From an uncultured Anaerolineales bacterium (GTDB taxonomy: Bacteria; Chloroflexota; Anaerolineae; Epilineales; Epilineaceae), in the NCBI GenBank assembly GCA_964549495.1, contig CAZJWJ010000008.1, forward strand, positions 514-64,513: a stretch of 64,000 nt of DNA. The letters run 5' to 3'. The notes under the pieces are model-generated. The model did no database searches. It was not told the DNA's origin and saw only the letters and a program-made list of their open reading frames with translations. Below are positions 34,637 through 59,456 of this stretch, piece by piece. The position numbers were made by a program, and so were the translations under genes. How positions within the stretch are numbered: position 1 is the stretch's first letter; the number at the start of each line of letters is the position of its first letter.

Positions 34637-34873
34637 TCAGTCCTGGATCTCCAGGCGCCAACGCTCGTCGCCCGGCGCCGCGTCCAGGAGGGCGCGGATG
34701 GCGTTGGCCACCCGCCCGTCGCGGCCGATCACCCGGCCCATGTCGGCGTCGGCCACTTCGAGCACCACCACGTGGTGGCGCCCCTTTTCGGCCTGACTGA
34801 CCTTCACCGCATCGGGCTCGTCGGCCAAGGCGCGGGCGACGTACTCCACCAGGCCCAGCATGTCGGCCGGCAT
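34637..34873 (-). CDS. KH-domain RNA-binding protein (YlqC/UPF0109)
   Basis: 78 aa, GRVIGRDGRVANAIR (GxxG KH loop). The start overlaps the rpsP stop by 1 nt. Confidence 0.85.
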   Translation of the reverse strand: MPADMLGLVEYVARALADEPDAVKVSQAEKGRHHVVVLEVADADMGRVIGRDGRVANAIRALLDAAPGDERWRLEIQD

Positions 34874-44122: not shown

Positions 44123-45009
44123 CGGCCGGCTTCCCGGCCAGCGAGCCGGCGGTCTCGGTATCCGGCCGCGAGCGCGACCTGCGCGGCCGGCTGGCCGAGC
44201 TCTGGAGCTACCGCCACCTGGTGGGCAACCTGGTGGTGCGCGACCTGAAGGTGCGCTACAAGAACTCGGTCCTGGGCTTCTTCTGGTCGCTGGTCAACCC
44301 GCTCTTGATGATGCTGGTGCTGTCGGTGGTCTTCGGCTTCTTCTTCCCCATCGGCCAGGCCCGCGCGCCGCATCTGTTCATCCTGGTGGCCATCCTGCCC
44401 TGGAACTGGTTCAACGCGGCGGTGGCCGGCGGCGTGGGCAGCATCACGAACAACGCGCCCCTGATCAACAAGGTCTACTTTCCGCGCGAGGTCCTGCCCA
44501 TCAGCATCGTCCTGGCCGAGCTGGTCAACTTCCTCTTTGCCCTGCCGGTGCTCTTGGCCATCATCGGCCTGACGGCCGAGGTGCAGATCACCCGCTTCGC
44601 GCTCTGGCTGCCCGTGATCCTGCTCATCCAGGTGATCTTCACGCTGGGCTTCGTGCTCATCCTGGCCACGGCCAACGTCTACTACCGCGATACCCAGATG
44701 ATCATGGACGTGGTCCTGATGGCCTGGTTCTTCCTGACGCCGATCTTCTACGACAGCGAGATGTACGACCGCTACGCGCTGGAGATCGCCGGCCAGTCCA
44801 TCGACGGCTCGCGCATCGCCTTCATCGTCAACCCCATGGCCAGCCTGATCGCCAACTACCGCGTGGCCCTCTACGGCTCGATGCAAGGCCCGCCCTCCAC
44901 CCCCGACCTACTCTTCCTCATCCGCACGGCCCTGACGGCGGTGGCGGTGCTGGTGGCCGGCTACTGGGTCTTCCACCGCTACAGCGGAGAGTTCGGCGAG
45001 GAGGTCTGA
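44119..45009 (+). CDS. ABC-2 type polysaccharide/teichoic-acid export permease (Wzm/TagG-like)
   Basis: GTGA overlap with the GT4 gene. LVVRDLKVRYKNSVLGFFWSLVNPLL signature and 6 TM helices. No cognate ATPase gene follows. Confidence 0.85.
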   Translation: MTAGFPASEPAVSVSGRERDLRGRLAELWSYRHLVGNLVVRDLKVRYKNSVLGFFWSLVNPLLMMLVLSVVFGFFFPIGQARAPHLFILVAILPWNWFNAAVAGGVGSITNNAPLINKVYFPREVLPISIVLAELVNFLFALPVLLAIIGLTAEVQITRFALWLPVILLIQVIFTLGFVLILATANVYYRDTQMIMDVVLMAWFFLTPIFYDSEMYDRYALEIAGQSIDGSRIAFIVNPMASLIANYRVALYGSMQGPPSTPDLLFLIRTALTAVAVLVAGYWVFHRYSGEFGEEV

Positions 45010-45052
45010 GGGCCGCAGTTCGGGCGCGGATCATCACATCCGACCCGGCCTA

Positions 45053-45484
45053 TCACGCGACTCCTGGTGGCTCGATGCGCTCGATGCCGGGCTGCCGGCC
45101 GAGACCACGGTCGAAGCTCAACAGCCGACCATCGGTTTCGTCCAGCGCTTGGCTGACATGCAGCGCGTCGCCGAATCCCAACGCTGGAGTCGTGGCGAAT
45201 CGATCGAGCGCCCGCTCGATCAAGGTCAGGTCCAGGACCCGCACACCACGTGCGCGCAGGATGGGCCTCAGAAGCTCACGTATGTCTCCCGCCTCGAGCG
45301 CATAGAGCTGCTGGGACCCGAGTACGTAGACGACCTCGGACACCACGGTGACCGAAATGACGAGGCGGATCTCCCCGCGCTCAGCCCGCTCGAAGACGGC
45401 GCGCGCCGCGCGGGCCTGCTCCGGCTGATCTCGGGTGAGCATGCGGATGATGACGTTGGCATCGACCAGCCAACTATCGACCAT
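45053..45484 (-). CDS. vapC: PIN-domain toxin VapC
   Basis: LVDANVII (Asp), SEVVYVL (Glu), GFGDALHV (Asp), LLSFDRG (Asp) give the conserved acidic quartet. 143 aa. Confidence 0.85.
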   Translation of the reverse strand: MVDSWLVDANVIIRMLTRDQPEQARAARAVFERAERGEIRLVISVTVVSEVVYVLGSQQLYALEAGDIRELLRPILRARGVRVLDLTLIERALDRFATTPALGFGDALHVSQALDETDGRLLSFDRGLGRQPGIERIEPPGVA

Positions 45485-45737
45485 GCCGGTTCTCGCGCTC
45501 GGCTTCTTCGGTCACGGCGATATCGATCATCTCGCGGTCAGATCGATCGCGCTCCAGAGCCGGCACGGCCATGACGACCGAGTCGAGGCTGTGCGCGGCC
45601 CGCTCGATGTAGACACGGCCATCCTCACCGACGATGAACACGAGCTTGTCGGATGCCCGAAGCTCCAATCGCTTGCGGATGCCGGCCGGCACCGTCACTT
45701 GCCCTCGCCCTGTCACCGTGGCTGTCTCTGTTTGCAT
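45474..45737 (-). CDS. vapB: AbrB/SpoVT-family antitoxin (VapB-type)
   Basis: ATG at 45737 after GGAGGGG. TVTGRGQVTVPAGIRKRLEL is a swapped-hairpin AbrB motif. 11-bp overlap with vapC. Confidence 0.8.
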   Translation of the reverse strand: MQTETATVTGRGQVTVPAGIRKRLELRASDKLVFIVGEDGRVYIERAAHSLDSVVMAVPALERDRSDREMIDIAVTEEAERENRHGR

Positions 45738-45783
45738 GATCACCCCTCCGCACGCGCACTCGGAGCTCAGGGTCCGAGTCGAT

Positions 45784-45828
45784 CGCATTGCATTATTCTA
45801 TCGCAATGCATCGCAAGAGCGCAATGCG
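45784..45828 (-). promoter_or_regulatory. candidate vapBC promoter/operator: repeated CGCAATGC/GCATTGCG half-sites around a TAGAAT -10
   Basis: cgcattgc (45784-91), cgcaatgc (45802-09) and gcgcaatgcg (45819-28). attcta (45795-800) reads TAGAAT on the coding strand, 58 nt upstream of the vapB ATG. Confidence 0.5.
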
Positions 45829-45892
45829 GTCGATCCGACCATGCAGGCCATCCGCGACGGACTCAGGACTCGTCGTCATTCGCGCTCGCGTG

Positions 45893-46150
45893 CTACAGCG
45901 AAGAGCGAAATGCCTCCAAATCGTTCACCTCGAGGATCCGGCGGTGCAAGGCTTCCAGTCGCTCCGGATCCGCGATGGTCTCGATCTGAGGCATGAGCGC
46001 AAGGCCTTCGTCGCCAAAGCGAAACGCCAACAGTCTTCGGATGGCATCGAGGAAGGCGGCCTGCCGGCCGATGGCCTCTCCCTCGACTCGGCCTTCTCGT
46101 CGGCCTTCTTGTCGACCTTCGTGGTGAAGTTGCTCAGCGATCGTGGCCAC
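45893..46150 (-). CDS. small stand-alone DUF4351-like protein (C-terminal module of Rpn/YhgA-type putative transposases)
   Basis: GTG at 46150, 4 nt after AGGAGGGAG. TIAEQLHHEGRQEGRREGRVEG...LLAFRFGDEGLALMPQI...LEALHRRIL is the E-G-R-Q-E-G helix plus the RFG helical module (recall). Confidence 0.55.
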   Translation of the reverse strand: MATIAEQLHHEGRQEGRREGRVEGEAIGRQAAFLDAIRRLLAFRFGDEGLALMPQIETIADPERLEALHRRILEVNDLEAFRSSL

Positions 46151-46303
46151 GGTACTCCCTCCTAGGTCCGGCCGAGCGAATCGAGTCTCATCGGCCTGAT
46201 GGCAGGCGTCCGATCGATGCACATCGACGAGGTGCGCTGGAAAGGACTACAGCTCAGCGCGAACGGCATCCAAGTCCTCAGCGTCGAGGATCCGTCGGTG
46301 CAG

Positions 46304-46750
46304 TCACTGCAACCAACCCAGATCGTTCACCTCCCTCACTTGCCGCATCAGTGCCCGGCCTTCGTCACCGAAGCGGAAGACCAGCGTGTCCTCTACGGCA
46401 TCGAGAAGGCTGGACCAGCGTCCGTACTCCTCGCCTTCTTCGCGTCCTCGTCGACGCAGCGCCTCGGCGAGTCTGACAAGGTGCTCCCCACCTAGCAGGA
46501 GCGTTCGCATGGTTTCGATGTCGTCGATGTCGGTCAGCAATGCCAGTGCGAGGTGGAGTTGATCCGGATCGTCTTGGGCTTCGACCCAAGGCATCAAGCT
46601 CAACCCGTCCGGACCGAAGCGCATTTGCAGGCAAGTCCGCAGGCTTTCGCGGAGCCCCAGAACCCGACCCTTTCGCAGACTTTGGCTGAACACGTCTCTG
46701 GTCAAGAAATCCAAGAAGTCCTGAACCTCATGTTCCGCGGCGGCAGACAT
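46304..46750 (-). CDS. DUF4351-like protein with two tandem copies of the module
   Basis: ATG at 46750 after GGAGGGAAG. LQMRFGPDGLSLMPWVE... and RRRGREEGEEYG...LVFRFGDEGRALMRQVREVNDL; the latter is paralogous to the 45893 gene. Confidence 0.6.
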   Translation of the reverse strand: MSAAAEHEVQDFLDFLTRDVFSQSLRKGRVLGLRESLRTCLQMRFGPDGLSLMPWVEAQDDPDQLHLALALLTDIDDIETMRTLLLGGEHLVRLAEALRRRGREEGEEYGRWSSLLDAVEDTLVFRFGDEGRALMRQVREVNDLGWLQ

Positions 46751-46877
46751 CGGCTTCCCTCCTGGACTCAGTCCGTCTACGAACGGTGTGACCGGTGCGC
46801 TGCCGCATGATGTGCAGGTCCCGGCCAGTGTTGACGATAGCAGTTCATTCCCGGCGTGACGGCTGGCCCGTCCTTCA

Positions 46878-48986
46878 TCACAGCAACTGCGGGCGCCGCT
46901 GCTCGGCGAGGAAGCGCTCGGTTCCCGCTGGATCGTAGGTTCGGCGCATGATCAGCTCGAGCTCCAAGCCGTCTGGAAGGCAAGGCTGGAACTTGCTCAG
47001 CCCGCCCCGGCGGGTGTGGCCGGCCGCGCGCCTCGCCAGTGCGTGGAGGTCCGCAGCAGCCAACTGCTGGATCGAAGCGCGCGCTGCGGCCGCGGCGGCG
47101 GGATCGTCGGTGGATAGACCGAGGTTGCCGCGCTTCCAGTCGCCGCCCTGCTCTTCGAGGCCAGCCGCCAGAAGGGCGTTGATGGCACCACCGGCAAAGG
47201 TGTGCCAGTGCACCCCCTTGTCGGTGCGCTCGATCGGCGCCTCGCCCGGCGTCACCAGGCCTTTGTAGCCCAAGCGCAGCGCGGCCAGCTCGTGGGCGGC
47301 GCTCGGACTGAGCCAGGGGTAGCGCTCGGTGTCGGCCAGCACCGCCTTCATGGACTGGCAGACCTCGAAGGACAGGTAGCCTCCCTCGCCCGACCAGCGC
47401 GGCAGGGCCGCACGGTCGGCCGGCTCGACGTAGCAGACCGCCCGCCGCCAGTCGATGCTGCGCACCTGCCAGGGCTGGCCGGCCAACCGGAACAAGGCCG
47501 GTCCTGCGCGCTCCTCCAAGACATGCAGGAAGGCGAAGTCGAGGCTGCCGACCTCGCGCCGGCCATGCTGCACGCGGAAGATGGGGGGCGTGTCGAAGAC
47601 CGCGTAGAGCTCGAAGAAGTTCTTGCCGGCGTAGCGCTTCTCGCCCTCGGCGCCCAGGCTCAGCCGGCCTTCGGCTTGGTAGAGGATGTCGCGCTCGAGC
47701 ATGGTGTCGATGAGCGCATCCAGGTCGGCCTGGCTCAGGCCGCGGAAGGGGCTGGCGCCGGCCAACCAGGTCAGGATGCGATGGCGCGAGATGCCCATCT
47801 CCTGAAGCGACAGGGCGATGATCTGGTGGGCCAGGACGTGCGCGGCGGCGGTCTCCGGCACCACGTCCTCGACCCAGCCCTGCTGCATCAGGCGGATCAA
47901 TCCGGCGGCCTGGAGCATCGTCTCGGAGGTCCGGCACAGGAAGTGGCAGTTGGACACCGTTTCCGCTCGGCGGCCGGTGCGGCCCATGCGCTGCAAAAAG
48001 CTGGATACGGTGCGCGGCGCATCGATCTGGATCACGTGGTCCAGGTCGCCGACGTCGATGCCCAGCTCCAGGGTGGAGGTGCAGACGATGGCGGTGTTCG
48101 TCCCGTGCTGGAAGCGGGCCTCGGCGCGTTCGCGGTCCTCGCGGCTGACCGAGCCGTGATGCACGAAGGTGTCGATGCCCTTTCCCTGCAAGGCCGCGGC
48201 CACCTGTTCGACCAGGCGCCGACTCTCGGCGAAGACCAGGCTCTTGCGGCCCAGCCCGATCTCGACGACCCGCCGCACGACCCCCGCGTCACTCTCGACC
48301 AGGTCGACGGAAAGCTCCCGCAGCGCAGGCGGCTTGGCCGGATCGACACGGCGGTAGGGACGCTGGCTCGAGCCGGCCAGCCACTGGCCGATCCGATCGG
48401 GATTGCCGACGGTGGCCGAGAGGCCGATGCGCTGCAGGTCGCGACCACAGAAGCGGACCAGCCGCTCGAGAATGGCCACCAGGTGCGCGCCGCGGTCGTC
48501 GCCGGCAAAGGCGTGCACCTCGTCGACGACCACTGCCGACAGGCCCGCGAACTGCCCGGCCGCCTCTTCTGGTCGGGTCATCAGCATGACCTCGAGCGAT
48601 TCGGGCGTGGTCATCAGGATATGCGTCGGCGCCTCGCGAAAGCGCCGCCGCTCGGCCTGCCCGACGTCACCGTGCCACTTGAAGGCATCCAGGCCGACCA
48701 TGCGCGCATAGGCCTTGATGCGGTGCTCTTGGTTGTTCAGAAGGGCGCGGATGGGGCAGATGTAGAGTACGGCAACGGGAGCGAGCTCCTCGCTCAGGAT
48801 GCGCGACAGCAACGGAAAGATGCTGGCCTCGGTCTTTCCGCCCGCCGTCGGCGCCAGCACGATCGCGTTGTCCCCGGCAAGCACCGCTTCGATGCTCTGC
48901 TCCTGAACCGGCCGCAGCGTGTTCCAACCCAGCTCGTGCACGATGGCATGGCGCAGGTTAGGGTGCAGCTGGAAGAAGGCACTCAC
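46878..48986 (-). CDS. brxHI: Lhr-like DEAD/DEAH-box helicase, BREX BrxHI-type
   Basis: VLAPTAGGKTEA (Walker A), VVVDEVHAF (DEVH), LSATVGN, HHGSVSREDRERAE, QRMGRTGRR. 702 aa, GTG start. Position is last in the BREX operon. Confidence 0.85.
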   Translation of the reverse strand: MSAFFQLHPNLRHAIVHELGWNTLRPVQEQSIEAVLAGDNAIVLAPTAGGKTEASIFPLLSRILSEELAPVAVLYICPIRALLNNQEHRIKAYARMVGLDAFKWHGDVGQAERRRFREAPTHILMTTPESLEVMLMTRPEEAAGQFAGLSAVVVDEVHAFAGDDRGAHLVAILERLVRFCGRDLQRIGLSATVGNPDRIGQWLAGSSQRPYRRVDPAKPPALRELSVDLVESDAGVVRRVVEIGLGRKSLVFAESRRLVEQVAAALQGKGIDTFVHHGSVSREDRERAEARFQHGTNTAIVCTSTLELGIDVGDLDHVIQIDAPRTVSSFLQRMGRTGRRAETVSNCHFLCRTSETMLQAAGLIRLMQQGWVEDVVPETAAAHVLAHQIIALSLQEMGISRHRILTWLAGASPFRGLSQADLDALIDTMLERDILYQAEGRLSLGAEGEKRYAGKNFFELYAVFDTPPIFRVQHGRREVGSLDFAFLHVLEERAGPALFRLAGQPWQVRSIDWRRAVCYVEPADRAALPRWSGEGGYLSFEVCQSMKAVLADTERYPWLSPSAAHELAALRLGYKGLVTPGEAPIERTDKGVHWHTFAGGAINALLAAGLEEQGGDWKRGNLGLSTDDPAAAAAARASIQQLAAADLHALARRAAGHTRRGGLSKFQPCLPDGLELELIMRRTYDPAGTERFLAEQRRPQLL

Positions 48987-48992
48987 CCGCGC

Positions 48993-50363
48993 CTAACCCA
49001 ATCGTTTCGGAGTCGGAGACTCGGACGATGGTTCGCCGGCTGGGGGCGGCGTTTCCACAGAGTCTTCCGCGGCATCACCACCCTTGCGCGCCTCCAACTC
49101 CTCCGGCGTGAGCGCCGACTCGTCGACCGTGAAGTCGTAGTCCTGCTCGGGATCGTAGTCGGGGTAGAGGTCGACCCGGTCCATGACGTCGACCAGGTCG
49201 CGCAGGAAGAGGCGCGGGACGATGCTGACCTGGCCACCGAAGGCGCTGGTGGCCTGCTGGACGAGCGCGTCGATGAAGGCGTCGTCCACCCGCTCGCGTA
49301 GGCGGTCCGGATGCTCGGCTGGGAAGAGATCGCGCACCTTGCGCCCGACCTCGGCCAGGCGCTGGGCGTCGAAGGGCTGGAGGCGGACCTGGGGGGCGCG
49401 CAGGTTGTCGAAGCGCGGGTCGTCACCAAAGCGGGTCTCGACGCGCGCCGCCAGGGGCGACAGATCCTTGATGCCCTTGTAGCCGTCGTAGAACTCTGGC
49501 GTGCCGGTGACGACCAGGTAGAGGCCCGGCAGGTCGCCGCCCAAGAGGAGGTCGATCAGCTGGCGTAGGGCGTTGAGCGCTTTCTCGCGCACGTCGGAGC
49601 GCATGCGCTGCACGGTCTCGACCTCGTCGAGCACCAGCATCAGGCCCTGGTAGCGGCTCTCGCGCAGCAGTTGGAGCAGGCCGCGCAGGAAGGTGAGCGC
49701 GCCGGGTCCGTCCAGGTCGCCCTTGACGTCTGCGCTGCGCTTGATGGCCGCGGCCACGCTGGGTTCGCCGGAGAGCCAAGCCAGGAGCCCCTGGGCGGTG
49801 GCGAAGTCGGATTGTTCCATGGCCCGGTGGTAGGCGCGCAGAGCGCGCGCGAAGGCCGGGTTGCGCGTGCTCAGGTCGGCCAGCTTGTTCTCTAGCCGCT
49901 GCTCGACGGCCGCTGGGAAGGCCGGGTCGCTCTCGGCGATGCCTTGCAGGCGCATGACCTCTTCGCCGATCTCGTAGATCCAGCTGTCGACCAGGGCCGG
50001 AAAGGCGCCCTCGCCATCGGTGGCGGTGGTCAGGCGCTCCATCAGGCGGCGGTAGACGGTCTCGAGCCGGTGCAGTGGCGTGTCCGTGACGGAGATCTGG
50101 ACCTCTGCGGTGGCGAATCCGCGCTGGCGGGCGTGCCAGCACAAGAGCCGCGTGGCAAAGGTCTTGCCGCTGCCGTAGTTGCCCCGGATCCACTTGGCCC
50201 GGCCGCTGCCGCCACCACCGGCCACCTCGTCCAACTCCCCATCGATGACCTTCAGCAGCGGGTCCAGGCCCGTCGCGAAGTGGTGCAAGCCGTCGCCCGG
50301 CACCGCGCCAGTACGCAGCGCGGCCACGATCTCGCGCGCTTCTCGCTCTTGAACCTGGCTCAT
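48993..50363 (-). CDS. brxD: BREX ATP-binding protein BrxD (DUF2791-type P-loop ATPase)
   Basis: VAALRTGAVPGDGL..., IRGNYGSGKTFATRLL (Walker A), LMLVLDEVETV (Walker B). 456 aa. Family assignment is by recall. Confidence 0.8.
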   Translation of the reverse strand: MSQVQEREAREIVAALRTGAVPGDGLHHFATGLDPLLKVIDGELDEVAGGGGSGRAKWIRGNYGSGKTFATRLLCWHARQRGFATAEVQISVTDTPLHRLETVYRRLMERLTTATDGEGAFPALVDSWIYEIGEEVMRLQGIAESDPAFPAAVEQRLENKLADLSTRNPAFARALRAYHRAMEQSDFATAQGLLAWLSGEPSVAAAIKRSADVKGDLDGPGALTFLRGLLQLLRESRYQGLMLVLDEVETVQRMRSDVREKALNALRQLIDLLLGGDLPGLYLVVTGTPEFYDGYKGIKDLSPLAARVETRFGDDPRFDNLRAPQVRLQPFDAQRLAEVGRKVRDLFPAEHPDRLRERVDDAFIDALVQQATSAFGGQVSIVPRLFLRDLVDVMDRVDLYPDYDPEQDYDFTVDESALTPEELEARKGGDAAEDSVETPPPAGEPSSESPTPKRLG

Positions 50364-51463
50364 GCGGAGGGCTCCTGGGGAATGAAGACGTATTGCGGCT
50401 CACCCGTGGGCAGCGTCTCGCTCCGGAAGCAGCGATAGCCAAGCGCCTGCAGCTGTCGGTCGAGCCCGTTCATGAAGCCCGGAATGCGCGCCTTGCGCGT
50501 GTCCAGGCCCTCGGCCAACTCGCTGAGCGAGACCGAGCCATTCTCCGACAGGAGCCACAAAGCACGCCGCTGTCGCTTGTCGAGCTCGTCGAGGACGGTC
50601 GGAGACAGAGGTGGCCGATCGTCGGTTTCATCACCGGCACCCGCGACCGTACCCACCTCATCATTCGGCTCCAGTGGTTTTGGCGGCACCGGCGACCTCG
50701 GCGACTTCGACGACTCCGGCGGCTTGGTCGTCGCGGGCTCCGCCTGCTCGCGCACCGAGACGGCCGGCATGTCAGCATAGGCTCGGATGTCGATTCCTTC
50801 CGACGCTGATCCACTGTCATCCAGTTGCGGCTGATTTGCCGGAATGGGGTCGGTCGACGGGACGTCCATTGCAGTCAGCTCGCGCTCGCCCTCGAGCAAG
50901 GGCTCGAGCGGGTCGGACCTGAAGCGCCCACCGGCCCACAGTCGTCGCCACATGACCACCGCGATGCCGAAGCTCAGGATCAAGAGCGTGAGCATGATCT
51001 GATTCGAGCGAGGATCGTCGGTGGTCAGGAATTCGTCGCCGAAGACGATGATCATGCCGATCACCCAAACGACGAACACCACCACGCTGAGCACCGTGAC
51101 CGCGGCGAGGTGCAGCCCAGCGCCGAGGCTGGCGACGACGGAATGCATGCGCGCCTGCACCTGCTCCGTGGGCGTGAGCCCGGCCGGCAGGCTCTGCAGC
51201 GGTCCGTGCGAGCGCAGCCAGCGGGCGCCGAGCACGGTCATGCCCAGGGTCAGGGCCATGGCAAGGCGGAATTGGGCGTCCGACATGCCCTCGCCCGTGC
51301 TCTGGATCCCGAGCAGCATCTCGCCGACGGCGAGGATGACCGCGGCCATCACGAAGGCCAAGGGCCCTGCGATGGACACGCGGAGAATCCAGAGCAGGCA
51401 CCCGCCGAGCTGCGCCGGATCGGGCCCAGCCGCGAGCTGGTCCTCTGGCTTCTGGATCGTCAT
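50360..51463 (-). CDS. uncharacterised multi-TM protein with Pro/acidic linker and C-terminal winged-helix-like module (non-canonical BREX-embedded gene)
   Basis: ATGA overlaps with both the pglZ stop and the brxD start. 4-5 TM helices in aa 20-170. The C-terminal 70 aa are ~45% identical to the PglZ C-terminal tail. Confidence 0.75.
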   Translation of the reverse strand: MTIQKPEDQLAAGPDPAQLGGCLLWILRVSIAGPLAFVMAAVILAVGEMLLGIQSTGEGMSDAQFRLAMALTLGMTVLGARWLRSHGPLQSLPAGLTPTEQVQARMHSVVASLGAGLHLAAVTVLSVVVFVVWVIGMIIVFGDEFLTTDDPRSNQIMLTLLILSFGIAVVMWRRLWAGGRFRSDPLEPLLEGERELTAMDVPSTDPIPANQPQLDDSGSASEGIDIRAYADMPAVSVREQAEPATTKPPESSKSPRSPVPPKPLEPNDEVGTVAGAGDETDDRPPLSPTVLDELDKRQRRALWLLSENGSVSLSELAEGLDTRKARIPGFMNGLDRQLQALGYRCFRSETLPTGEPQYVFIPQEPSA

Positions 51464-54042
51464 CCACCACCCCGCCAGCTGTACTGATGCTCGCCCGAGC
51501 CCAGGCGCTCGACCTCGAAGAGCGGTTGCCCTTCGGCCTGGAGCGTGTGGTGGAGCTTGGTCATGAAGCCGCGCACCCGAGCCGGGCGCATCTCCAAGCT
51601 GCGAGCCAGCTCGGTCTCGGTCAGGGTCCGGTTGCCGGCCAAGAGCGCCAGGGCCCGCTGCTCGTTGTCGTCGAGGCCCTGCGCGATGCCCTCGGGGATC
51701 TCCGCCGGCAGCCGGCGCGGAACGGCCACCGGCTTCGGCTCGACGGGCTTGGCCGGCACCTCCGGCAGGGCCGCGGCGACCAAATCCCCCGCGGGACCAG
51801 GCTCTTCAACGACCGCGTCCAGCTCCACGTGCTCCGGGAACCTCTCTCGCGCCGCGGGCCCGGCATCGAACCACCAAGCCGGCTCCTCGGCCGGCAAGCC
51901 GCCCCGCTCCAACCAAGCCAAGGGCACGGCCATCTCCTCCAGCCCGCAACCCCCGTGGTAGCCCACCTTGGGTTGGTTGCCGCGATAGGCCGACATCCGC
52001 CAGGCAAAGGCCTGGCGCGCATCGGTGCCGCCAAGCCCGTGGGTGTCGATCTCGATGAAACCCGCCGGCGCAGCCTCGCCCTTGCCGAGCGCCAGGAAGC
52101 GCGCGGTGGCCCCGGCGCTGACGCGATGGTCGGTGCTGGCATGCAGGCTGTGGCCGTGATCGCTGGTGAGCAGGACGCTGCGGCCGGCGTCGAAGGCCGC
52201 GTTCAGGGCCGGCAGCAGGCCGGCGATCTGATCGGCGCGGACCTGCACCGAGAGGCCGGCCGCGCTGCCGATGAGGTCGTCCACGGTGTTGTAGACCGCT
52301 ACGACCAGCCGCGGACCGTCGGCGGCCAGGGCCGCGCGCAGCGAGGCGCCGCCATCGGCCAGGTCGCCCTTGAGGAAGAGCTGCGTGCTCAGGCTCTCGA
52401 GCCAGTCGTTCTGGTTGAGCCGCGCCTTGTCGGTCTTGGCCGCCTCGGCCTGCCAGGTCGATTCCTCGACCAGGGGATCGTCGGGAATCTTGCCCGCCAT
52501 CAGGGCGCCGCGGGCGTGGCTGGTGATCGAGGGCAGGATGGAGATGCCCAGCGGCAGCTCGGCAGCGCCAAGGTCCTCGCCCAGCTCCAGGCCGATGCCC
52601 GTCCCCGCCGTCGCGGCCAGCTGCCACAGCAGCTCGTTGAAGACGGCCAGGCTGCAGCCGTCCAAGACCACGACGAAGACCGGCCGGCCGCTCTGGTCGA
52701 TGCGCGGCCGGGCCACATCGCGCAGGATGTTGTGCATCGGCACGACGCCATCCTGCCCGATGGCCGCAGGGTAGTCCTCGGCCAAGGACTTGGCGAAGGC
52801 CAGGTTCTCGGCGTCGCGCCGCTTGCGCCAGGCGTCCAGGACGGCCCCGGCCTCCGAATGGAAGCTGCCGGTGGCCGCCAGGCAGCGCTGCATTCGCATC
52901 GCGGCCAAATCGGCAAAGGCGCCGTGGCGCTGGTAGGCGCGCAGGCGGGCGTCGATGGCGCTGGCCGAGCTCTCCTCCGTGGCCAGGTAGCGCGAGAGGC
53001 GGGCCAGCTCGGCGAGCAGGGCCAGCTCGCGCCGATAGGCGTCCACGGCGCGATGGCGCTCGAGCCATTCGATCTCTTCGCGCCCGATGGCCTCGCCCGC
53101 GGCGGCGCGATCGGCGATCTGCGCGGCGCGGTTCTCGAAGCCCAGCGGAAGGATGTGGCTCCGGGCGATCAGCGAGGGGGCAAGTAGCTGGCGGGCGAGG
53201 CTGTCGGCCTGCTTCAGGTAGGGTGCCGCGGCCGGCCCCATCTCGTCCAGCACCTTCTCGATCAGCTGGACGATGCTCCGGCGCAGGCTATCGGACGGCA
53301 GGCCGACGTGGGCATCGTCGAGCGCGCCGTCGAGCGGGCCCCAGACGGCCAGCGGCAGCTCGTCGGACTCGGTGGCCAGCAGGATGCCGTGGACCAGCAG
53401 GGCTTCCAGGCGACCCGGCTCGGCCAGGCTCCAGGCCAGGATGCGGCCCTGGGTGCCCAAGTGGACGGGGGACTGGCGCCTGAAGAGCCGGCGGACGGGC
53501 GGCTCCAGCGCGGGGCCCTTGGCCAGCAGCTTGGCGACCACGCCGGCCGCGCTGGCGCTGCGGATGCGCTGTTCGAGGATGATCTCGATCAGCAGCTCTT
53601 CCAGCAGCTGGGCATCGACGACGGTGGGTAGGGTGCGCTGGGCCATGGTCTGGCGCAGCTGCGGGGCGTGGTCCAGGGCCAGCTGCTGCAGCTCTGGGTC
53701 CTCCACGCCGCTGACCTGCACGCCCAGGGCCACCGAAAGGATGTCGACGATGGACAGGGTGTGCACGTGCCCGCTGCAGGAGCGCTCGAGCAGATCGGGC
53801 GGCAGCCGCTGCGCCAGCTCGCGCGGCATCAGCGCGATGAAGGGCGCCCCATCCGCCTTCCAGACCGTCCGCCGCAGGGCCAGCTCGGTCTCGCTGCGGC
53901 AGACGGTGAACTTGCTGCCGCCGGCCTCGACGGCCTCGGGCAGGTCACCCAGCCCGCCTTCGTCCAGCGCCAGCACGTAACCGCCGCGCTCGGCGCAGCC
54001 GGCCATCTCGATCAGGCGCTGGATCAGGGGCGTGGCGTTCAT
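51460..54042 (-). CDS. pglZ: BREX alkaline-phosphatase-superfamily protein PglZ, with extra C-terminal winged-helix-like module
   Basis: PglZ core: VFVVVLDGCSLAVF, SITSHARGALMAGK, VYNTVDDLIG, VLLTSDHGH. 860 aa. ATGA overlap with the brxC/pglY stop. Confidence 0.9.
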   Translation of the reverse strand: MNATPLIQRLIEMAGCAERGGYVLALDEGGLGDLPEAVEAGGSKFTVCRSETELALRRTVWKADGAPFIALMPRELAQRLPPDLLERSCSGHVHTLSIVDILSVALGVQVSGVEDPELQQLALDHAPQLRQTMAQRTLPTVVDAQLLEELLIEIILEQRIRSASAAGVVAKLLAKGPALEPPVRRLFRRQSPVHLGTQGRILAWSLAEPGRLEALLVHGILLATESDELPLAVWGPLDGALDDAHVGLPSDSLRRSIVQLIEKVLDEMGPAAAPYLKQADSLARQLLAPSLIARSHILPLGFENRAAQIADRAAAGEAIGREEIEWLERHRAVDAYRRELALLAELARLSRYLATEESSASAIDARLRAYQRHGAFADLAAMRMQRCLAATGSFHSEAGAVLDAWRKRRDAENLAFAKSLAEDYPAAIGQDGVVPMHNILRDVARPRIDQSGRPVFVVVLDGCSLAVFNELLWQLAATAGTGIGLELGEDLGAAELPLGISILPSITSHARGALMAGKIPDDPLVEESTWQAEAAKTDKARLNQNDWLESLSTQLFLKGDLADGGASLRAALAADGPRLVVAVYNTVDDLIGSAAGLSVQVRADQIAGLLPALNAAFDAGRSVLLTSDHGHSLHASTDHRVSAGATARFLALGKGEAAPAGFIEIDTHGLGGTDARQAFAWRMSAYRGNQPKVGYHGGCGLEEMAVPLAWLERGGLPAEEPAWWFDAGPAARERFPEHVELDAVVEEPGPAGDLVAAALPEVPAKPVEPKPVAVPRRLPAEIPEGIAQGLDDNEQRALALLAGNRTLTETELARSLEMRPARVRGFMTKLHHTLQAEGQPLFEVERLGSGEHQYSWRGGG

Positions 54043-57000
54043 GCGCCAGCATCGTCCTCGGGCTTGCGGCGCAGGGTGATGTCGATGCGCAGCTCGGCGG
54101 CGCCCTGGGCGGCCTGGGCAATCTGCGACCTGAGCTTGCTGATGAAGGTGTCGACTTCACGCGGGTCGATCGGCTTGTCTCGCTCGTGGAAGACCTCTTC
54201 GAAGTCGCGAGGTGGCTCCGGATCTGGGTCCGGATCCGGGTCGGGGTCCGGCTTGACCGTGATCAGCTTTCGCACGAGATCTGCGGCATGCTCGTTCCAG
54301 TCGTGGATCTTGGCACCCGTCAACGTGCTGTGCTGTCGCTCCGGCTCCAACCAATGCTGAAGCTTCTCCACATGGTGTTGGATCTCCTTGCCGAGCACGG
54401 GATTGCCGAGTGCCCGTCTCAAATAGCCCAGATCATCCTCGTCGACCCGCTTGACCAACTCGAGGTCGGCCTCCGCACCCCGCGTGACGCCCCGCAGGGG
54501 GTCGTCGATGTCGTCGGGCCAGGCGCTCACCAGGGCGGCCAGCATGTGGTAGGAGTCGAGCTTGGTGTCGTCTACGGGCTGGAGGCGGTCGATGGCCTGG
54601 CGCAGCTCGCTGAGGCGCGGCGTCTGCTCGCTGCCGCCCAGGCGGACCAGTAGCGAGTGCAGGCTCCGCAGCTGCTGGCGGGCCAGGTGGCCGGCCTCGC
54701 GGATCTGGCCGCCCCAGGCGTCCTGGATGCCCAGGGTGCGGTAGGCGGTGGGTTCCTCCAGGCCGAAGAGGACCGCGCCCAGGTTGCGCGCGCGGCTCCA
54801 CTCGGCGGCTTCGAGGACCGGTGCGCGTTCGAGCAGCAGGCCGACGCGGGCGTTGTTGTCCAGCTTGCCCGGGTCGATGGGGTCACCGGTCTTCTCGGCC
54901 AGGGTGCGGTAGCTGCGGGAGCGCAGGACGAAGAAGAGGAATAGGTTGCGCAGGGCCGGCTGCAAGCCGTACTCCTCGGTCAGCGCGTTGTCGATGGGCG
55001 CCCAGAGCAGGCTCGCCTCGCCCAGGGGCTGGAGCACGTGCTGGATGTAACGGGTGTCCTGCCGCAACTGGCCGTGGGTCTGTCCGAGCTTGACGACCTC
55101 GAGCGGCTCGCCCAGGTCGCGCAGGACGCGCTCGGTCTTGTCGTCGAATGGAGCGCGGGCGCTTTCGGTCTCGGAGGCTTGGAGCATCCAGCCCAGGAGG
55201 GTCTCCAAATCTCCGGTGGTGGGCCGGGACTTGAAGCTGGGGTGCTGCGGGTAGCGTCGGTCGAGCAGGCTGCGCGCGAAGTGCTCCAGGTTGTCGGACA
55301 GCTCGGGCTTGGGGATGCTCTCCTCGACGTCGCCGACCATGGCGATGATCTCGCCGCGGTCGCGGTAGGCGCTCTTGATGGCCTCTTGGAGTTGGGCACG
55401 CAAGGTGGCGGCGCGCTTCTCGGCCCGGTCGACCAGCTGGAGCTGGTCGGAGGGGTCGCGGTTGGGCATCAGGCTCTTGCGGCCTTCGGGGCTGGCGATC
55501 AGCTCGCAGGCGGCCAGGTCGGTGATCAGGTCCAGCTCGTGGGGGGTGAAGTGGCGGGGCAGCCAGCAGATGGTGTAGAGCGAGCCTTCGGCCTTGCGCA
55601 CGGTGGGCACGCGCAGGCGGTCGTCCTCGACCGAGAAGCCGGCTTCGTCCCAGGGGTAGTCGATGACGATGCGGAACTCGGCCGAGCCGGGGCGGAAGCG
55701 CTCGTAGGGCATGGCGCGGATGTTGCCGATGCACAGGCTGCCGCGCCGCTCGGTGTTGCGCCAGTTGACGCGCAGGGGCCCGTCGTTGTTGTCCTGGGGG
55801 CCGAATCCGCTCTGGCCGGCGATGCCCAGCTGCTGCTTGAAGACGCTGTAGAAGGTGTGGAAGCGGCGCTGCAAATTGTCGACGCTGCTCTTGGCGCGTT
55901 CGAGCAGCTCGCCGAAGTCGGGGCCCTCGATGGTGATGCTGACCACGGCGTTGCCGCCAGAGCCGCTGATCTGCACGGCCGGGATGCGCCGCGAGAGCTC
56001 GAGCAGGTCGCCGGCGGTGACCGACATGCGCCCGAGGTCGGTGCGGCCCTGGACTTCGACGTCGTTGAAGCGCACCAGGCGATCGACGCTCAGGTCGGCA
56101 AAGCCGGAGCTGAGCCGGGGCGAGACCTTGCCCAGGAGGCTGGTCTTGACCAGTTGGGCCAGGGTGTGGGCGCGGCGCTCGTCGATGCTGCCCAGGTTCT
56201 CGTCGGCGGCCATGCTGGCGATGGCCGGGCCGATGCGTTGGTGGTAGAGGTTGTTGATGGCCTGCAGGGTGGTGACGCGGCGGTAGCCGATGAAGTTGTC
56301 GGTGGGAAAGATGAAGTCGAAGGCGCTGCCGACGGGCACCAGCTCGCCCAATGGCAAGTCGCGGCTGGCGATGAGCAGCTGGTAGAGCAGGCGCAGGGCG
56401 GTGCGGTCGCGCTGCAACAGCGAGGAGACGTCGATGAGCATCTCGATGAGCGCGGGGTGGTAGGGGTAGACGTCGCGCAGGTAGTCTTCGTCGCCGGATT
56501 GCAGGATGGTGGGCAGCAGCTTGCTGTGGCGCTCGGTCAGGGCGTCGAGGACGGGCGCGAGCTTGTCGGGGTCCTTGACCTTCAACACCCGCTCGCGGAC
56601 GATGTGCCGCAGCTCGACGTCCTCCAGGGTGATCAGCTCGAAGCGCTCGCGGTGGTGGTCGAGGTGCTCGTGGAGCTCTTCGTTGTCGCTCATGTCGGGG
56701 AAGAAGTCGGAGAAGCGCCGCTGGCGGGCCATCAGGACGGCCAGGGGGATGTCGCGCGGGCCGCCGCTGAAGTCGACCATCACGTTGAGCTGGTTGATGG
56801 CGGCCTTGAAGTCGTGGTCGTCCTTGCCGGAGAGCCACAGCAGCATCTCGTCGAGCATCAGCACCAGGCCGTCGAAGCCTTGCTGCTTCAGGTGCGTGGC
56901 CAGCCGGCGCAGGCCTTCGGCCCAGGCGGGGTTGATGCCGGCCTGCTCGGCGCTCATGCCCTTGTATTCCAGGTAAGCCAGGGCGAACTTCTCGCGCGGC

Positions 57001-57614
57001 TTGATGTCCTGGCTGCCCAGCAAGTGCTCGAGTACTTCCTGGGCATCGGGGACGCCGACGCTTTCCATGCCCTTCCAGAAGGCCTCGCCGTAGCGCTGGC
57101 CTTCGCGCTGGGCCTGCTGCAGCACGCCGTCGACGTCGATGAACTCGAAGAGCGGCTTGCCGCGCTTGTCCAGCTCGCGGTTGACGGCTTCGTAGACCAG
57201 GCGGTCGAAGCGGTCGGATTGCCGGGCGGCGCTCATCAGGTTGACGCGCACGACCAAGAGCTCGCGCTCGGCCACCCAGGGGCGGAACTGGCTGCGCAGC
57301 TCGCCGACGAAGGGGTGGTCTTTCTGCCAGGCCACGTCGGAGTTCTCGAGCAGGTAGCTCAGGTAGCCCATGAAGTGGCTCTTGCCGGAGCCAAAGCTGC
57401 CGTGGATGAACCAGCCCACGCCCTTGCCCTGCTTGAGCTCGGCCTTCATGCGCGTCAGCACGGCCCGCAGATCGTCCTGCACGCCGGGCGTCAGCACGTA
57501 GCTGTCGACCAGGCGCTGGGGCGAGTGCTCACCTTCGTCGATCTGGATGACGAAGTCGAGGGCGGAGATGCCGCTGGGAATCTCGAAGACGTCGTCGAGC
57601 GTCACCTGACTCAT
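54039..57614 (-). CDS. pglY: BREX large P-loop ATPase PglY/BrxC
   Basis: 1191 aa. WFIHGSFGSGKSHFMGYL (Walker A), LVLMLDEMLLW (Walker B). Length and position are typical of BrxC/PglY. Confidence 0.85.
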   Translation of the reverse strand: MSQVTLDDVFEIPSGISALDFVIQIDEGEHSPQRLVDSYVLTPGVQDDLRAVLTRMKAELKQGKGVGWFIHGSFGSGKSHFMGYLSYLLENSDVAWQKDHPFVGELRSQFRPWVAERELLVVRVNLMSAARQSDRFDRLVYEAVNRELDKRGKPLFEFIDVDGVLQQAQREGQRYGEAFWKGMESVGVPDAQEVLEHLLGSQDIKPREKFALAYLEYKGMSAEQAGINPAWAEGLRRLATHLKQQGFDGLVLMLDEMLLWLSGKDDHDFKAAINQLNVMVDFSGGPRDIPLAVLMARQRRFSDFFPDMSDNEELHEHLDHHRERFELITLEDVELRHIVRERVLKVKDPDKLAPVLDALTERHSKLLPTILQSGDEDYLRDVYPYHPALIEMLIDVSSLLQRDRTALRLLYQLLIASRDLPLGELVPVGSAFDFIFPTDNFIGYRRVTTLQAINNLYHQRIGPAIASMAADENLGSIDERRAHTLAQLVKTSLLGKVSPRLSSGFADLSVDRLVRFNDVEVQGRTDLGRMSVTAGDLLELSRRIPAVQISGSGGNAVVSITIEGPDFGELLERAKSSVDNLQRRFHTFYSVFKQQLGIAGQSGFGPQDNNDGPLRVNWRNTERRGSLCIGNIRAMPYERFRPGSAEFRIVIDYPWDEAGFSVEDDRLRVPTVRKAEGSLYTICWLPRHFTPHELDLITDLAACELIASPEGRKSLMPNRDPSDQLQLVDRAEKRAATLRAQLQEAIKSAYRDRGEIIAMVGDVEESIPKPELSDNLEHFARSLLDRRYPQHPSFKSRPTTGDLETLLGWMLQASETESARAPFDDKTERVLRDLGEPLEVVKLGQTHGQLRQDTRYIQHVLQPLGEASLLWAPIDNALTEEYGLQPALRNLFLFFVLRSRSYRTLAEKTGDPIDPGKLDNNARVGLLLERAPVLEAAEWSRARNLGAVLFGLEEPTAYRTLGIQDAWGGQIREAGHLARQQLRSLHSLLVRLGGSEQTPRLSELRQAIDRLQPVDDTKLDSYHMLAALVSAWPDDIDDPLRGVTRGAEADLELVKRVDEDDLGYLRRALGNPVLGKEIQHHVEKLQHWLEPERQHSTLTGAKIHDWNEHAADLVRKLITVKPDPDPDPDPDPEPPRDFEEVFHERDKPIDPREVDTFISKLRSQIAQAAQGAAELRIDITLRRKPEDDAGA

Positions 57615-57701: not shown

Positions 57702-59456
57702 CTAGTCGTCGCCAAGGCGGATCGCCCCCTGTTCGAGGATCTGATGCGCGAGCTGCTTGGGGTTGTAACCGCCCGGGATGCGCACCAGCGGCTTGTCGTA
57801 GGTGTCGCAGTAGGCCTTGACCTCACTGTATCCGTGGCTCGACCAGCGGATCAAGAGCAGCACGACCGCGACATCGGTCCGGGCGATGGCCGATTCGAAC
57901 TCGGTATAGGAGGCCGCTCCGCCGTCCAACCACAAGAGCTCGCTGAGGCCGAAGGCCCGCTCGATGCGCTTCTTGTGTCGTGGGCGCTGGATGCCGCCGA
58001 TCAGCACGACGGCCTCACCCTCCAACAAGGCGCGGACGCGCTCTTCCTCTTCGCTCGGCGTTTCGGCAGCGATGTCGTCGTCTTGGAGATGCGCGGTTTC
58101 GGTCTCGCGCGATGCCAGGTACCGGTCGATGGCCCGCGAGGTGAGCAGGACGTTCTGGCCGGGCTCGATCTCATCCGGGATGTCGTCGAAGACGGGCAGC
58201 AAGATGTCGCGCAGTTGGACGCTGCTGGGTGCCACGCCCGACTCGACCAGTTTGTCGACGGCGTCCAGCGCCCGGTCCCAATCTTCGCGAGCGCCAGGGC
58301 CGGTTGCGCCGCGAATGCGCTGGATGTGATAGCGCAGCCGTCCCCATTGCCGTGCCTGGTCGCGGCCGACGCTGAGCTGCGCCTCGAGTTCATCGCGCAA
58401 TTCGGCGCAACGTTCGCGCAGGCTTCCCCATGCGCCCGGGTCGGCGGGATCGGTCAGGCGCATGTAGCGCGAGAGGTAGATGCGCTGGCGATCGGTGATG
58501 GAGCGGAGCCAGCCGAAGGCGTCACGTTGGCTCTCGTCACTGCGCTCGTCGAGTCTGGCCACGGCGAGGCGCAGGGCGGATTGGGCTTCGGCCAGGAGGG
58601 CCAGGGCCTGGCTCAGGGCGTCGGAGAGCTCGTCGGTTTCGAGGATCATCGCGCAGAGTCGCAGGGCATCGGCCAGCGCTTCGAAGTTCCCCGCCAATTC
58701 GTCCCAATCTCCCGGGTCGGTGGGGACGGGCGCGTCGCTACGGCACATCCACAACGAGACCTTGGCGCTGTGGCCCTTGCGCAAGATCTCGCGATCGCCG
58801 GGCGCGATCTCGGTATGGAAGTCCACGCCCCGCGCCAAGCGCCGCTGCCGCTCCCCGACCCAACGCGCGGCCTCCGCCTTCAGGCTCGCGTCGCCGGCCA
58901 GCCGGATCAGCAAGCGGCTCTGCGGCTCCGGCGCGGATGCTTCGGTGCCTGTCCGCCCCTGGTCTACGGTCTGTGACGCAGCCATCTCGGCGCGCGCAGC
59001 TTCGCGGGCTCGTCGGGCTTCTCGAGCCTCCTCGGCACGTTCGGCTTCGCGGGCGGCCAATACCTGTGCGATCCGCTCCTCGAGCGATTCGGGCTCTTCG
59101 GGCTCCTCCTCGTCTTCGTCGGCCTGGTCGGTGCTGGCATCTTCGTCGCGATCGGCCTGGTCGCCTTCGTCATCGGCGTCCGTCGCCGGCGCTTCGGCCG
59201 CGGGCTCGCCGGCACCGGCTTCGTCGATCTGCTCGGGCTGGTCGGCGACCGCGTCCAACTCCGGCTGGCGCAACGCGCGCTGGATTCGGTCGGCCGCTTC
59301 GAGCAGGATCGCCCGCAGCTCGGCGTCTTCCTCCGCCAGCTTCGAGAGCCGCAGCAGCAGCGGGAGCATGCTCTCCGCGAGCGAAGCGGCATCACCGCGA
59401 ACCTCTCCGCCCGGCTCCGTCCGATCCTGGTTCATGCCTTGACCCTCGTCGCTCAT
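57702..59456 (-). CDS. uncharacterised acidic protein with DUF2325-like C-terminal domain (non-canonical BREX-embedded gene)
   Basis: True start is the ATG at 59456, forming an ATGA overlap with the pglX stop; the track's 730-aa form carries a Gly/Arg junk extension inside pglX. D/E-rich aa ~70-135, helical middle. C-terminus VVLIGGIQRPRHKKRIERAFGL...TDVAVVLLLIRWSSHGYSEVKAYCDTYDKPLVRIPGGYNP. Confidence 0.8.
   Translation of the reverse strand: MSDEGQGMNQDRTEPGGEVRGDAASLAESMLPLLLRLSKLAEEDAELRAILLEAADRIQRALRQPELDAVADQPEQIDEAGAGEPAAEAPATDADDEGDQADRDEDASTDQADEDEEEPEEPESLEERIAQVLAAREAERAEEAREARRAREAARAEMAASQTVDQGRTGTEASAPEPQSRLLIRLAGDASLKAEAARWVGERQRRLARGVDFHTEIAPGDREILRKGHSAKVSLWMCRSDAPVPTDPGDWDELAGNFEALADALRLCAMILETDELSDALSQALALLAEAQSALRLAVARLDERSDESQRDAFGWLRSITDRQRIYLSRYMRLTDPADPGAWGSLRERCAELRDELEAQLSVGRDQARQWGRLRYHIQRIRGATGPGAREDWDRALDAVDKLVESGVAPSSVQLRDILLPVFDDIPDEIEPGQNVLLTSRAIDRYLASRETETAHLQDDDIAAETPSEEEERVRALLEGEAVVLIGGIQRPRHKKRIERAFGLSELLWLDGGAASYTEFESAIARTDVAVVLLLIRWSSHGYSEVKAYCDTYDKPLVRIPGGYNPKQLAHQILEQGAIRLGDD

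Follow-up and report, generated by a model that had tools for sequence, protein, structure and literature searches.

The window analysed here is a stretch of 64,000 nucleotides from an uncultured Anaerolineales bacterium (GenBank assembly GCA_964549495.1, contig CAZJWJ010000008.1, positions 514 to 64,513 of the forward strand), and it carries a type 2 bacteriophage exclusion (BREX, or Pgl) operon on its minus strand. Our subject is a 367-aa open reading frame (ORF) of this operon, hereafter the target gene, which lies between pglZ and brxD. Its product is predicted to consist of a membrane anchor, a disordered linker and a C-terminal winged helix-turn-helix (wHTH) module, the last being a paralogue of the tail of the adjacent PglZ. 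In the positions of the window, the gene and its two junctions are as follows.

50360..51463, minus strand: target gene, encoding the TM-wHTH protein of 367 aa (anchor of four transmembrane (TM) helices, disordered tether, wHTH); ATG-start ORF with a coding signal in the GC content at third codon positions (GC3) and full-length homologues (P0002-P0004, L015, L018)
51460..51463, minus strand: ATGA overlap of the pglZ stop codon (TGA) and the target start codon (ATG), by direct sequence reading
50360..50363, minus strand: ATGA overlap of the target stop codon (TGA) and the brxD start codon (ATG), by direct sequence reading

The target gene and its operon

As the original prediction had claimed, the 367-aa ORF was bounded at both ends by ATGA overlaps. 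Overlaps of 4 nt were present at the pglY/pglZ, pglZ/target and target/brxD junctions, and brxD and brxHI were separated by a gap of 6 nt; these spacings indicate that the target gene lies inside one tightly coupled operon. A Shine-Dalgarno sequence for brxD (AGGAG) was located 8 nt upstream of the brxD start, within the final codons of the target gene, and no promoter- or terminator-like sites above the shuffled background were detected in or around the target gene. The GC content of the window was approximately 70%, and long chance ORFs are therefore common; eight other ORFs of at least 100 aa overlapped the target ORF. The GC3 in the annotated frame, however, was 0.84 overall, with 0.90 for the TM part, 0.72 for the linker and 0.84 for the tail, and the frame with the highest GC3 changed exactly at the pglZ/target and target/brxD junctions. 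The target is a real protein-coding gene that is translationally coupled to pglZ and brxD.

The neighbouring genes, named as pglZ, brxD and brxHI in the original prediction, were confirmed as such by NCBIfam, Pfam (PF10923) and PADLOC. All six components of a type 2 BREX (Pgl) system were matched by models of PADLOC, Pfam and NCBIfam, pglW being represented by its C-terminal part only.

63060..64000, minus strand: C-terminal part of pglW, frame open to the window edge (64000); PADLOC PglW, E 8e-8, model positions 1132-1384 of 1413
59453..63058, minus strand: pglX, methyltransferase, 1201 aa; PADLOC PglX, 1103 bits; Eco57I, MmeI_Mtase and DUF7008 domains
54039..57614, minus strand: pglY/brxC, 1191 aa, in a 4-nt overlap with pglZ; PADLOC BrxC-PglY, E 1e-146
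51460..54042, minus strand: pglZ, BREX-2 phosphatase, 860 aa; NF033446 BREX_PglZ_2, 282 bits (cutoff 200); PADLOC PglZ, E 1e-68
48993..50363, minus strand: brxD, ORC/Cdc6-type AAA+ ATPase (DUF2791), 456 aa; PF10923, E 2e-134; PADLOC BrxD, E 8e-171, and SngB, E 3e-42
46878..48986, minus strand: brxHI, Lhr-like DEAD helicase, 702 aa; PADLOC BrxHI, E 1e-257, and SngC, E 6e-143; DEAD, Helicase_C and WH_Lhr domains

The membrane anchor and the C-terminal winged helix

Kyte-Doolittle (KD) profiles of the window protein and four homologues, evaluated together with the positive-inside rule and with AlphaFold2 (AF2) models, the confidence of which is given as the predicted local distance difference test (pLDDT), divided the protein into the segments below. 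The paralogous segment of PglZ is listed last.

51308..51400, minus strand: TM helix 1, approximately aa 22-52; KD peak 2.44; AF2 helix 16-51; conserved LR..LRWLIAFP-type juxtamembrane motif before the helix
51215..51280, minus strand: TM helix 2, approximately aa 62-83; KD 1.22, the weakest in the window protein (1.68-2.21 in homologues); AF2 helix 62-86
51038..51121, minus strand: TM helix 3, approximately aa 115-142; KD 3.0; AF2 helix 98-147; K/R-rich loop, predicted to be cytoplasmic, before the helix
50942..51007, minus strand: TM helix 4, approximately aa 153-174; KD 1.88; AF2 helix 151-178; RR..R.R cluster after the helix, on the predicted cytoplasmic side
50612..50929, minus strand: disordered Pro/Ser/acidic linker, aa 179-284; P 17%, E 11%, D 10%; AF2 pLDDT <50
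50375..50602, minus strand: C-terminal three-stranded wHTH of the target protein, aa 288-363; AF2 pLDDT 87.9; Foldseek matches; 45% identity to the PglZ tail
51475..51687, minus strand: C-terminal wHTH of the adjacent PglZ, aa 786-856, paralogous module; BLASTP match; P0033 identical to the PglZ of the window

Four hydrophobic helices were found in each of the five proteins (KD peaks 1.2-3.0). Of the four to five helices originally predicted, four were thus recovered by both the KD profiles and the AF2 helices, whereas a fifth was not. The full-length AF2 model, built from four sequences, was of low confidence (pLDDT 55), with helix positions in agreement with the KD profiles. Clusters of K/R were located at the N-terminus, in the TM2-TM3 loop (2-6 K/R in all homologues) and after TM4 (3-8 K/R within 20 aa in the four homologues with TM4 called), and the TM1-TM2 and TM3-TM4 loops were 7-16 aa long and mostly acidic. 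By the positive-inside rule, this distribution of K/R predicts an N-in/C-in topology without a periplasmic domain, and loops as short as these on the periplasmic side speak against a sensor domain there. Helices of TM length and positive-inside charges, as in integral inner-membrane proteins, were conserved among the homologues, and on this basis the target product is predicted to be an inner-membrane protein with four TM helices and both termini in the cytoplasm.

Residues L27, R28, A32, P34 and A36 around TM1 were invariant, as were GP and R105 in the TM2-TM3 loop, and W133 was among the conserved motif residues of the TM domain; no invariant polar or charged residue was found in the TM cores. 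Identity of the TM domains between groups of homologues was 24-35%. An exhaustive HMMER search of 1.84 billion cluster representatives (clusters at 50% identity) revealed no relatives of the TM domain in other contexts, and a word-index protein search with a TM-domain profile found nothing. The Pro/Ser/acidic linker, originally estimated at about 120 aa, was approximately 105 aa long and rich in P, E, D, A and S; its length and sequence varied among the homologues, with gaps and low identity in the alignment.

The C-terminal HTH-like module of about 70 aa that had been predicted proved to be a winged helix in the AF2 model. This model, based on an alignment of 28 sequences, had a mean pLDDT of 87.9 and the topology H1-b1-H2-H3-b2-b3 (elements H17-29, E31-33, H34-40, H45-61, E67-71 and E77-81). 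Foldseek comparison with the PDB, which had been proposed as a check of the module, retrieved mainly wHTH proteins (MarR, ArsR, TFIIE/TFE, TrmB and Fur; probability 0.9-1.0), the best matches having a TMq of 0.5-0.63. Profile matches in the PDB were weak (Lrp/AsnC and MarR, E 0.003-0.1) and covered H1-H3 only, and Pfam matches were below threshold (HTH_24, E 0.003; MarR, E 0.02). No above-threshold match to the MarR, ArsR or Lrp transcription-factor families was found, and the module is without a dimerisation domain.

A closer relative was located next door, a relationship absent from the original prediction. BLASTP aligned aa 294-360 of the target protein with aa 790-856 of the window PglZ at 45% identity (E 2e-12). 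Type 2 PglZ is known to end in a three-stranded wHTH (PMC12839542, NAR 2026), and the target module resembled this tail family in both sequence and fold, sharing the H1-b1-H2-H3-b2-b3 arrangement and the motifs LD..ER.AL, R..GFM..L.R.L and LPSGE.QY. In each of the two proteins the module follows a low-complexity, Pro-rich leash. Unlike the PglZ tail, however, the target wHTH is not the C-terminus of a PglZ polypeptide; it ends a separate protein, the N-terminal half of which is the predicted 4-TM anchor, the contig L017 described below being the exception. Sequence and predicted fold mark the target wHTH as paralogous to the tail module of the neighbouring type 2 PglZ and, more broadly, to the PglZ tails. 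In both clades the modules were near neutral in charge; H3 was mildly basic (+2 to +5), and the wing tip (LPSGE) was acidic.

Distribution, origin and genomic surroundings

The HMMER search returned 33 proteins, including three other full-length clusters, P0002 (344 aa, 44% identity, E 4e-50), P0003 (355 aa) and P0004 (358 aa). The remaining matches were to the last ~75 residues only; 29 matches covered the target wHTH alone and were mostly tails of PglZ proteins of ~860-871 aa (P0007, P0017, P0023, P0026 and P0033, the last being the PglZ of the window itself, with 100% identity) or fragments. No above-threshold family was found for the target protein or its TM half in Pfam, NCBIfam, PADLOC or PHROGs, and no relative was found on viral contigs. 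A word-index protein search with the single target sequence retrieved only the target itself, and a profile of the TM-clade wHTH modules retrieved four short entries. It was noticed that the word-index search had missed the homologues of 37-44% identity recovered by HMMER. TM and low-complexity segments probably swamped its selection of candidates, and a "no homologues" outcome of this search should not be trusted for such compositions.

Each full-length homologue was located between the C-terminus of a PglZ with its own tail wHTH and BrxD, followed by a DEAD helicase, and 4-nt overlaps were present at both junctions of the homologous loci (ATGA or GTGA on the pglZ side). The loci concerned were L006 (P0002), L007-L010 (P0003), L011-L014 (P0004), L015/L016 (P0006) and L018 from a JGI metagenome, which was the only locus added by a metagenome scan and is of the P0004 type. 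Homologues thus do exist in BREX loci of the order pglZ-[gene]-brxD-helicase, although the original prediction had considered that none might. P0006 (144 aa) was seemingly truncated, but L015:6023-7087 is an intact 354-aa gene, 60% identical to P0003, with a GTG start and a GTGA overlap with the pglZ stop. In this gene and in L016:1481-2545, public gene calls had kept the last 144 aa and left a 626-bp "intergenic" gap, and the target family is likely under-annotated in metagenomes. Decay or frameshift, considered for P0005 and P0006, was rejected for both, as P0006 is the intact gene with the GTG start and P0005 derives from the PglZ::wHTH fusion described below.

In four type 2 loci retrieved via BrxD (L001-L004; BrxD 50-75% identical), pglZ directly abutted brxD and the target gene was missing. 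These came from metagenome-assembled genomes (MAGs) of Anaerolineales, Myxococcales, Polyangiales and gammaproteobacteria, and the closest BrxD relatives were from Anaerolineales, Polyangiales and Myxococcales MAGs. Of the brxD-brxHI pairs, which the original prediction had proposed to inspect for preceding homologues of the target, those of the gene-bearing loci were preceded by one and those of L001-L004 were not. BrxD identities separated the gene-bearing loci into two groups, {window, L006} and {L007, L015, L018, L017 fusion}. The BrxD of the gene-less L001 was 73% identical to that of the window, compared with 70% for the second gene-bearing group; since L001 is about as close to the window as that group, the distribution of the gene is patchy. 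The family is rare, with four clusters at 50% identity from metagenomes and one NCBI record, and the gene is absent from L001-L004 and from the components listed in PMC12839542, so it does not belong to the core of type 2 BREX. The gene is a seventh component, rare and lineage-specific, which is always located between pglZ and brxD.

The alignment and neighbour-joining tree of 26 wHTH modules placed those of the TM type in one tight clade (mean identity 68%) nested in the diverse PglZ tails (mean 34%). Unlike PglZ tails, the TM-type copies thus form a clade of their own, and they have evolved more slowly than their cognate PglZ tails. In the window and L006, the cognate PglZ tails retained R..GFM..L and LPSGE.QY. 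In the P0003/P0004/L015 lineage, the cognate tails had lost the GFM and LPSGE motifs (GAVVSL and AADGD.LY instead), whereas the TM-type wHTHs kept them, which suggests that the PglZ tail of this lineage was relaxed or subfunctionalised after duplication. The diverged tails are those listed here.

L007:2-1237, L011:3-302 and L015:3390-6026: PglZ C-termini with GFM changed to GA[VL]VS and LPSGE changed to AADGD

For the best-resolved pair, P0003 versus L015 (synonymous divergence, dS, 0.55-0.83), the ratio of nonsynonymous to synonymous substitution (dN/dS) was lowest for the wHTH (0.04), intermediate for the TM domain (0.29) and highest for the linker (0.83); GC3 bias distorts these absolute values, but their ranking is clear. 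Both folded parts are under purifying selection, and the linker is constrained only as a spacer.

The contig L017 (L017:2-493; Logan ERR14790948) presented a third arrangement. Here the PglZ C-terminus and its own linker led without interruption into a wHTH of the TM type (79% identity to the P0004 module), and brxD came next with the usual overlap; there was neither a TM anchor nor a PglZ-type tail. The frame, which ran off the contig edge, was colinear with the linker found in PglZ of the L015/L007 lineage (PPGWW.G ... PRR ... PDGAAALA), the DNA matched intact loci only from the wHTH start onward (81-86% identity), and the module nested inside the TM clade, with P0005 being the end of a PglZ::wHTH fusion. 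Because the DNA match begins at the wHTH start and the module falls inside the TM clade, L017 is regarded as a derivative formed by deletion or recombination. In this reading, PglZ tail, anchor and leash were all lost in the event, and a PglZ::TM-type-wHTH fusion remained. As for the target gene itself, it may have arisen by duplication of the PglZ tail and fusion of the copy to a membrane anchor; its tail being paralogous to the PglZ wHTH, the origin would lie inside BREX and not in recruitment of a Shango-like third component.

These data also bear on whether the ORF could be spurious or a decaying remnant in a high-GC genome. Numerous long chance ORFs overlap the region, the word-index search retrieved the target alone and some homologues (P0005 and P0006) had been called as short ORFs, all of which would fit such an explanation. 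Against it stand the GC3 frame signal, the existence of four to five full-length homologues that have diverged in sequence while keeping the synteny and the 4-nt overlaps, a dN/dS well under 1 in both folded parts, and the finding that P0006 is an intact, under-called gene. Decay, which had been named at the outset as a possible fate of the region, did not materialise in the L015 copy either, which is intact with its GTG start and shows the low dN/dS values in the wHTH and TM domain given above. We regard this explanation as refuted.

A second non-canonical gene was observed in the 1.8-kb gap between pglX and pglY (57702..59324, minus strand; about 540 aa, GC3 0.83). The N-terminal half of its product is acidic and of low complexity, the C-terminal region matches DUF2325 below threshold (E 2e-4, 21.7 bits versus a cutoff of 33.6), and no PADLOC or NCBIfam family was assigned. 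Its start codon is uncertain, because the listed 730-aa ORF with a TTG start overlaps the end of pglX. Within pglX, a low-GC stretch was located at 60000..61999 (0.56-0.59 versus about 0.70 around it), and GC3 was 0.74 in pglX versus 0.92-0.93 in pglY and pglZ; this stretch may be a recently exchanged segment, e.g., a target-recognition domain. ARAGORN called a 102-nt tRNA-Pro(TGG) within pglZ (51849..51950, minus strand), where Rfam showed no tRNA, and the call is probably a false positive; the Rfam scan of the window gave no matches.

Just downstream of brxHI, a region of lower GC content (45000..47000; 0.62-0.64) contained a gene for a PIN-domain (VapC-like) toxin (45053..45484, minus strand) and a 148-aa ORF (46304..46750, minus strand) with no family match and a weak GC3 signal (0.69). 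This region may be a small defence or toxin-antitoxin island bordering the BREX operon. Otherwise the operon is surrounded by ordinary chromosomal genes, including ffh, rpsP, tilS, glycosyltransferases and an ABC-2 permease. The gene for ribosomal protein S16 (34873..35643, minus strand) encodes a C-terminal extension matching the C-terminal domain of the RNA polymerase alpha subunit (PF03118, E 2e-10), an unusual fusion.

Possible roles of the anchored module

The reading we favour, tentatively, is that the target protein serves as a tether or adaptor at the inner membrane, where it would make the function of the PglZ tail available. The target wHTH would keep the ancestral function of the tail and bind the same ligand, be it DNA or one of the other BREX proteins, for instance the loader-helicase pair of BrxD and BrxHI. 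Retention of the tail function by a module anchored in the membrane would mean that this function is presented from the inner membrane, where the anchored wHTH could concentrate part of the BREX machinery, or its DNA substrate, at the place where phage DNA enters. In a reasonable version of this scheme, the BrxD-BrxHI module or DNA would dock on the tail and be gathered at the membrane by the anchored copy; this version draws on the proposal that BrxD is a loader of BrxHI (PMC12839542) and on the position of the gene between pglZ and brxD.

The character of the two folded parts is consistent with a membrane tether. The low dN/dS of the wHTH, the retention of its motifs and the L017 fusion suggest that the tail function is both retained and portable. 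The anchor and leash would act as a tether rather than as an enzyme or a channel, and the TM domain fits an anchor better than a catalytic or channel domain, as far as can be judged from its lack of invariant polar residues in the TM cores, its 24-35% identity between groups, its short outer loops and its lack of relatives elsewhere. A more specific form of the proposal, namely that the type 2 BREX of this sub-lineage is wired to the inner membrane, with the anchored paralogue recruiting BrxD and BrxHI (perhaps also PglZ) or capturing incoming DNA, is considerably more doubtful.

Several observations weigh against the tether. The predicted topology was derived from hydropathy and the positive-inside rule, the full-length AF2 model of four sequences having a pLDDT of only 55. 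In L017 the wHTH works, or at least persists, without a membrane anchor, although this is a single metagenomic contig in which the PglZ part is cut by the contig edge. The near-neutral charge and acidic wing tip of the module do not appear to separate DNA from a protein as its ligand. Finally, most type 2 BREX loci lack the gene, among them that of the close relative L001 (BrxD 73%); this absence from close relatives places it outside the core mechanism, for which its role is dispensable.

An unlikely but structurally plausible alternative is that the target is a regulatory decoy or brake, in which the anchored wHTH competes with the PglZ tail for a partner or a DNA site. A partner such as BrxD-BrxHI might be held inactive at the membrane, or the toxicity of PglZ/PglX limited, until infection brings release, a refinement to which we give the same low credence. 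Competition is conceivable since the module is paralogous to the PglZ tail; translational coupling between pglZ and brxD would fix the stoichiometry, the PglZ tails of one lineage diverged after the paralogue appeared, and Pgl reportedly behaves like a toxin/antitoxin system with PglX toxic in the absence of PglZ (PMC4365076). Most type 2 BREX loci manage without the gene, however, and in L017 the TM-type wHTH replaces the PglZ tail, which fits equivalence better than antagonism. The same contig, by dispensing with the TM domain, speaks against a sensor of membrane state or an effector of abortive infection, in which the TM domain would sense injection of phage DNA or form a pore and the wHTH would relay the signal. 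Purifying selection on the TM domain (dN/dS 0.29) and the conserved juxtamembrane motifs (LR..FP, GP, R105 and W133) would be expected of such a protein, and membrane surveillance has been proposed for the TerB-containing Shango and Bunzi systems and demonstrated for Kiwa and Zorya. Its periplasmic loops of 7-16 aa, TM cores without conserved polar residues, 24-35% TM identity between groups, a wHTH that is the most constrained part and the lack of similarity to KwaA, ZorA/B or any PADLOC effector all make this role quite improbable.

Still less probable is a membrane-tethered transcription factor for the BREX operon or other genes, comparable to the wHTH regulators adjoining other BREX loci. 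The fold is closest to DNA-binding wHTHs of the MarR, ArsR and Lrp type and H3 carries a net charge of +2 to +3, but the closest relatives of the module are PglZ tails, its wing tip is acidic and its core neutral, and a translationally coupled gene in mid-operon would be unusual for an autoregulator. In ToxR and CadC, an OmpR-type wHTH at the N-terminus is joined by a single TM helix to a sensor domain in the periplasm. They resemble the target protein in having a winged helix tethered to the inner membrane; in the target, by contrast, the order is reversed (N-terminal anchor, C-terminal wHTH), four TM helices are predicted without a periplasmic domain, and the wHTH is related to PglZ tails. 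With its reverse order and no sensor domain, it is not a regulator of the ToxR/CadC type. The matching module is, moreover, fused to an enzyme in type 2 systems (PMC12839542).

The original prediction had pointed to an analogy with membrane-associated TerB-type proteins accompanying DUF2791 ATPases and Lhr-type helicases. The Shango gene order is TerB-like (SngA), DUF2791 ATPase (SngB) and Lhr-like helicase (SngC), and BrxD and BrxHI of the window are relatives of SngB and SngC (matches at E 3e-42 and E 6e-143, respectively). The target gene, like SngA, is immediately upstream of the ATPase gene, which is followed by the Lhr-like helicase gene, and in both systems the product of this upstream gene is a (possibly) membrane-associated protein, TerB being thought to be so. 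The positional part of the analogy therefore stands. Homology does not: the target gave no match to PADLOC models (E<=0.01), Pfam Ter domains (E<=10) or NCBIfam (E<=1), permissive thresholds that returned no TerB or SngA, its only detectable homology is to PglZ tails, and four related brxD-brxHI pairs have pglZ directly upstream with no third gene. With its predicted integral TM helices and PglZ-derived wHTH, the target is like SngA in position and perhaps in function, not in family, and descent from an SngA-type (TerB-N/TerB-C) third component travelling with the ATPase and helicase is essentially refuted. A BrxD-like locus (L005, 32% identity) considered for comparison with Shango was not used, its domain lying inside an 827-aa ORF.

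If the target is indeed a membrane tether, it would have precedents in Kiwa (PMC11785009) and Zorya (PMC11946911), in which membrane-embedded components couple to soluble DNA-acting partners. In both of these, what happens at the membrane is presumably passed on to an attack on invading DNA. Like KwaA beside KwaB and ZorAB beside ZorC/ZorD, the target would be an integral membrane part beside cytoplasmic DNA-acting proteins. It differs from them in lacking a large cytoplasmic or periplasmic assembly domain, having only a leash and a 76-aa wHTH, and its membrane part is an optional add-on to BREX, whereas that of Kiwa and Zorya is a core component. The KwaA, ZorA and ZorB models of PADLOC gave no match of any kind to the target.

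No account of a membrane component in BREX turned up in a search of the literature; what is new here is a type 2 BREX system with a seventh, membrane-anchored component derived from PglZ. The target gene is a natural experiment on the PglZ tail, the domain being found in three configurations: 1) on the PglZ enzyme, 2) on a membrane anchor, encoded by a gene of its own between pglZ and brxD, and 3) back on the enzyme, as in L017. These configurations suggest that the tail is an autonomous binding module that can be moved from one protein to another, and the gene gives a concrete handle for finding its ligand. Should the gene prove to be a rare accessory of minor importance and nothing more, it would matter for annotation only, as an unnamed family with a defined architecture and context. 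If the system is wired to the membrane as proposed, BREX restriction would start at the membrane, and the PglZ tail wHTH would be a docking module linking PglZ to BrxD-BrxHI in all type 2 systems. If the anchored copy did recruit BREX components or DNA to the membrane, this would be the first sign that BREX is spatially organised, and would place BREX alongside Kiwa, Zorya and perhaps Shango, in which phage sensing close to the membrane is emerging as a theme.

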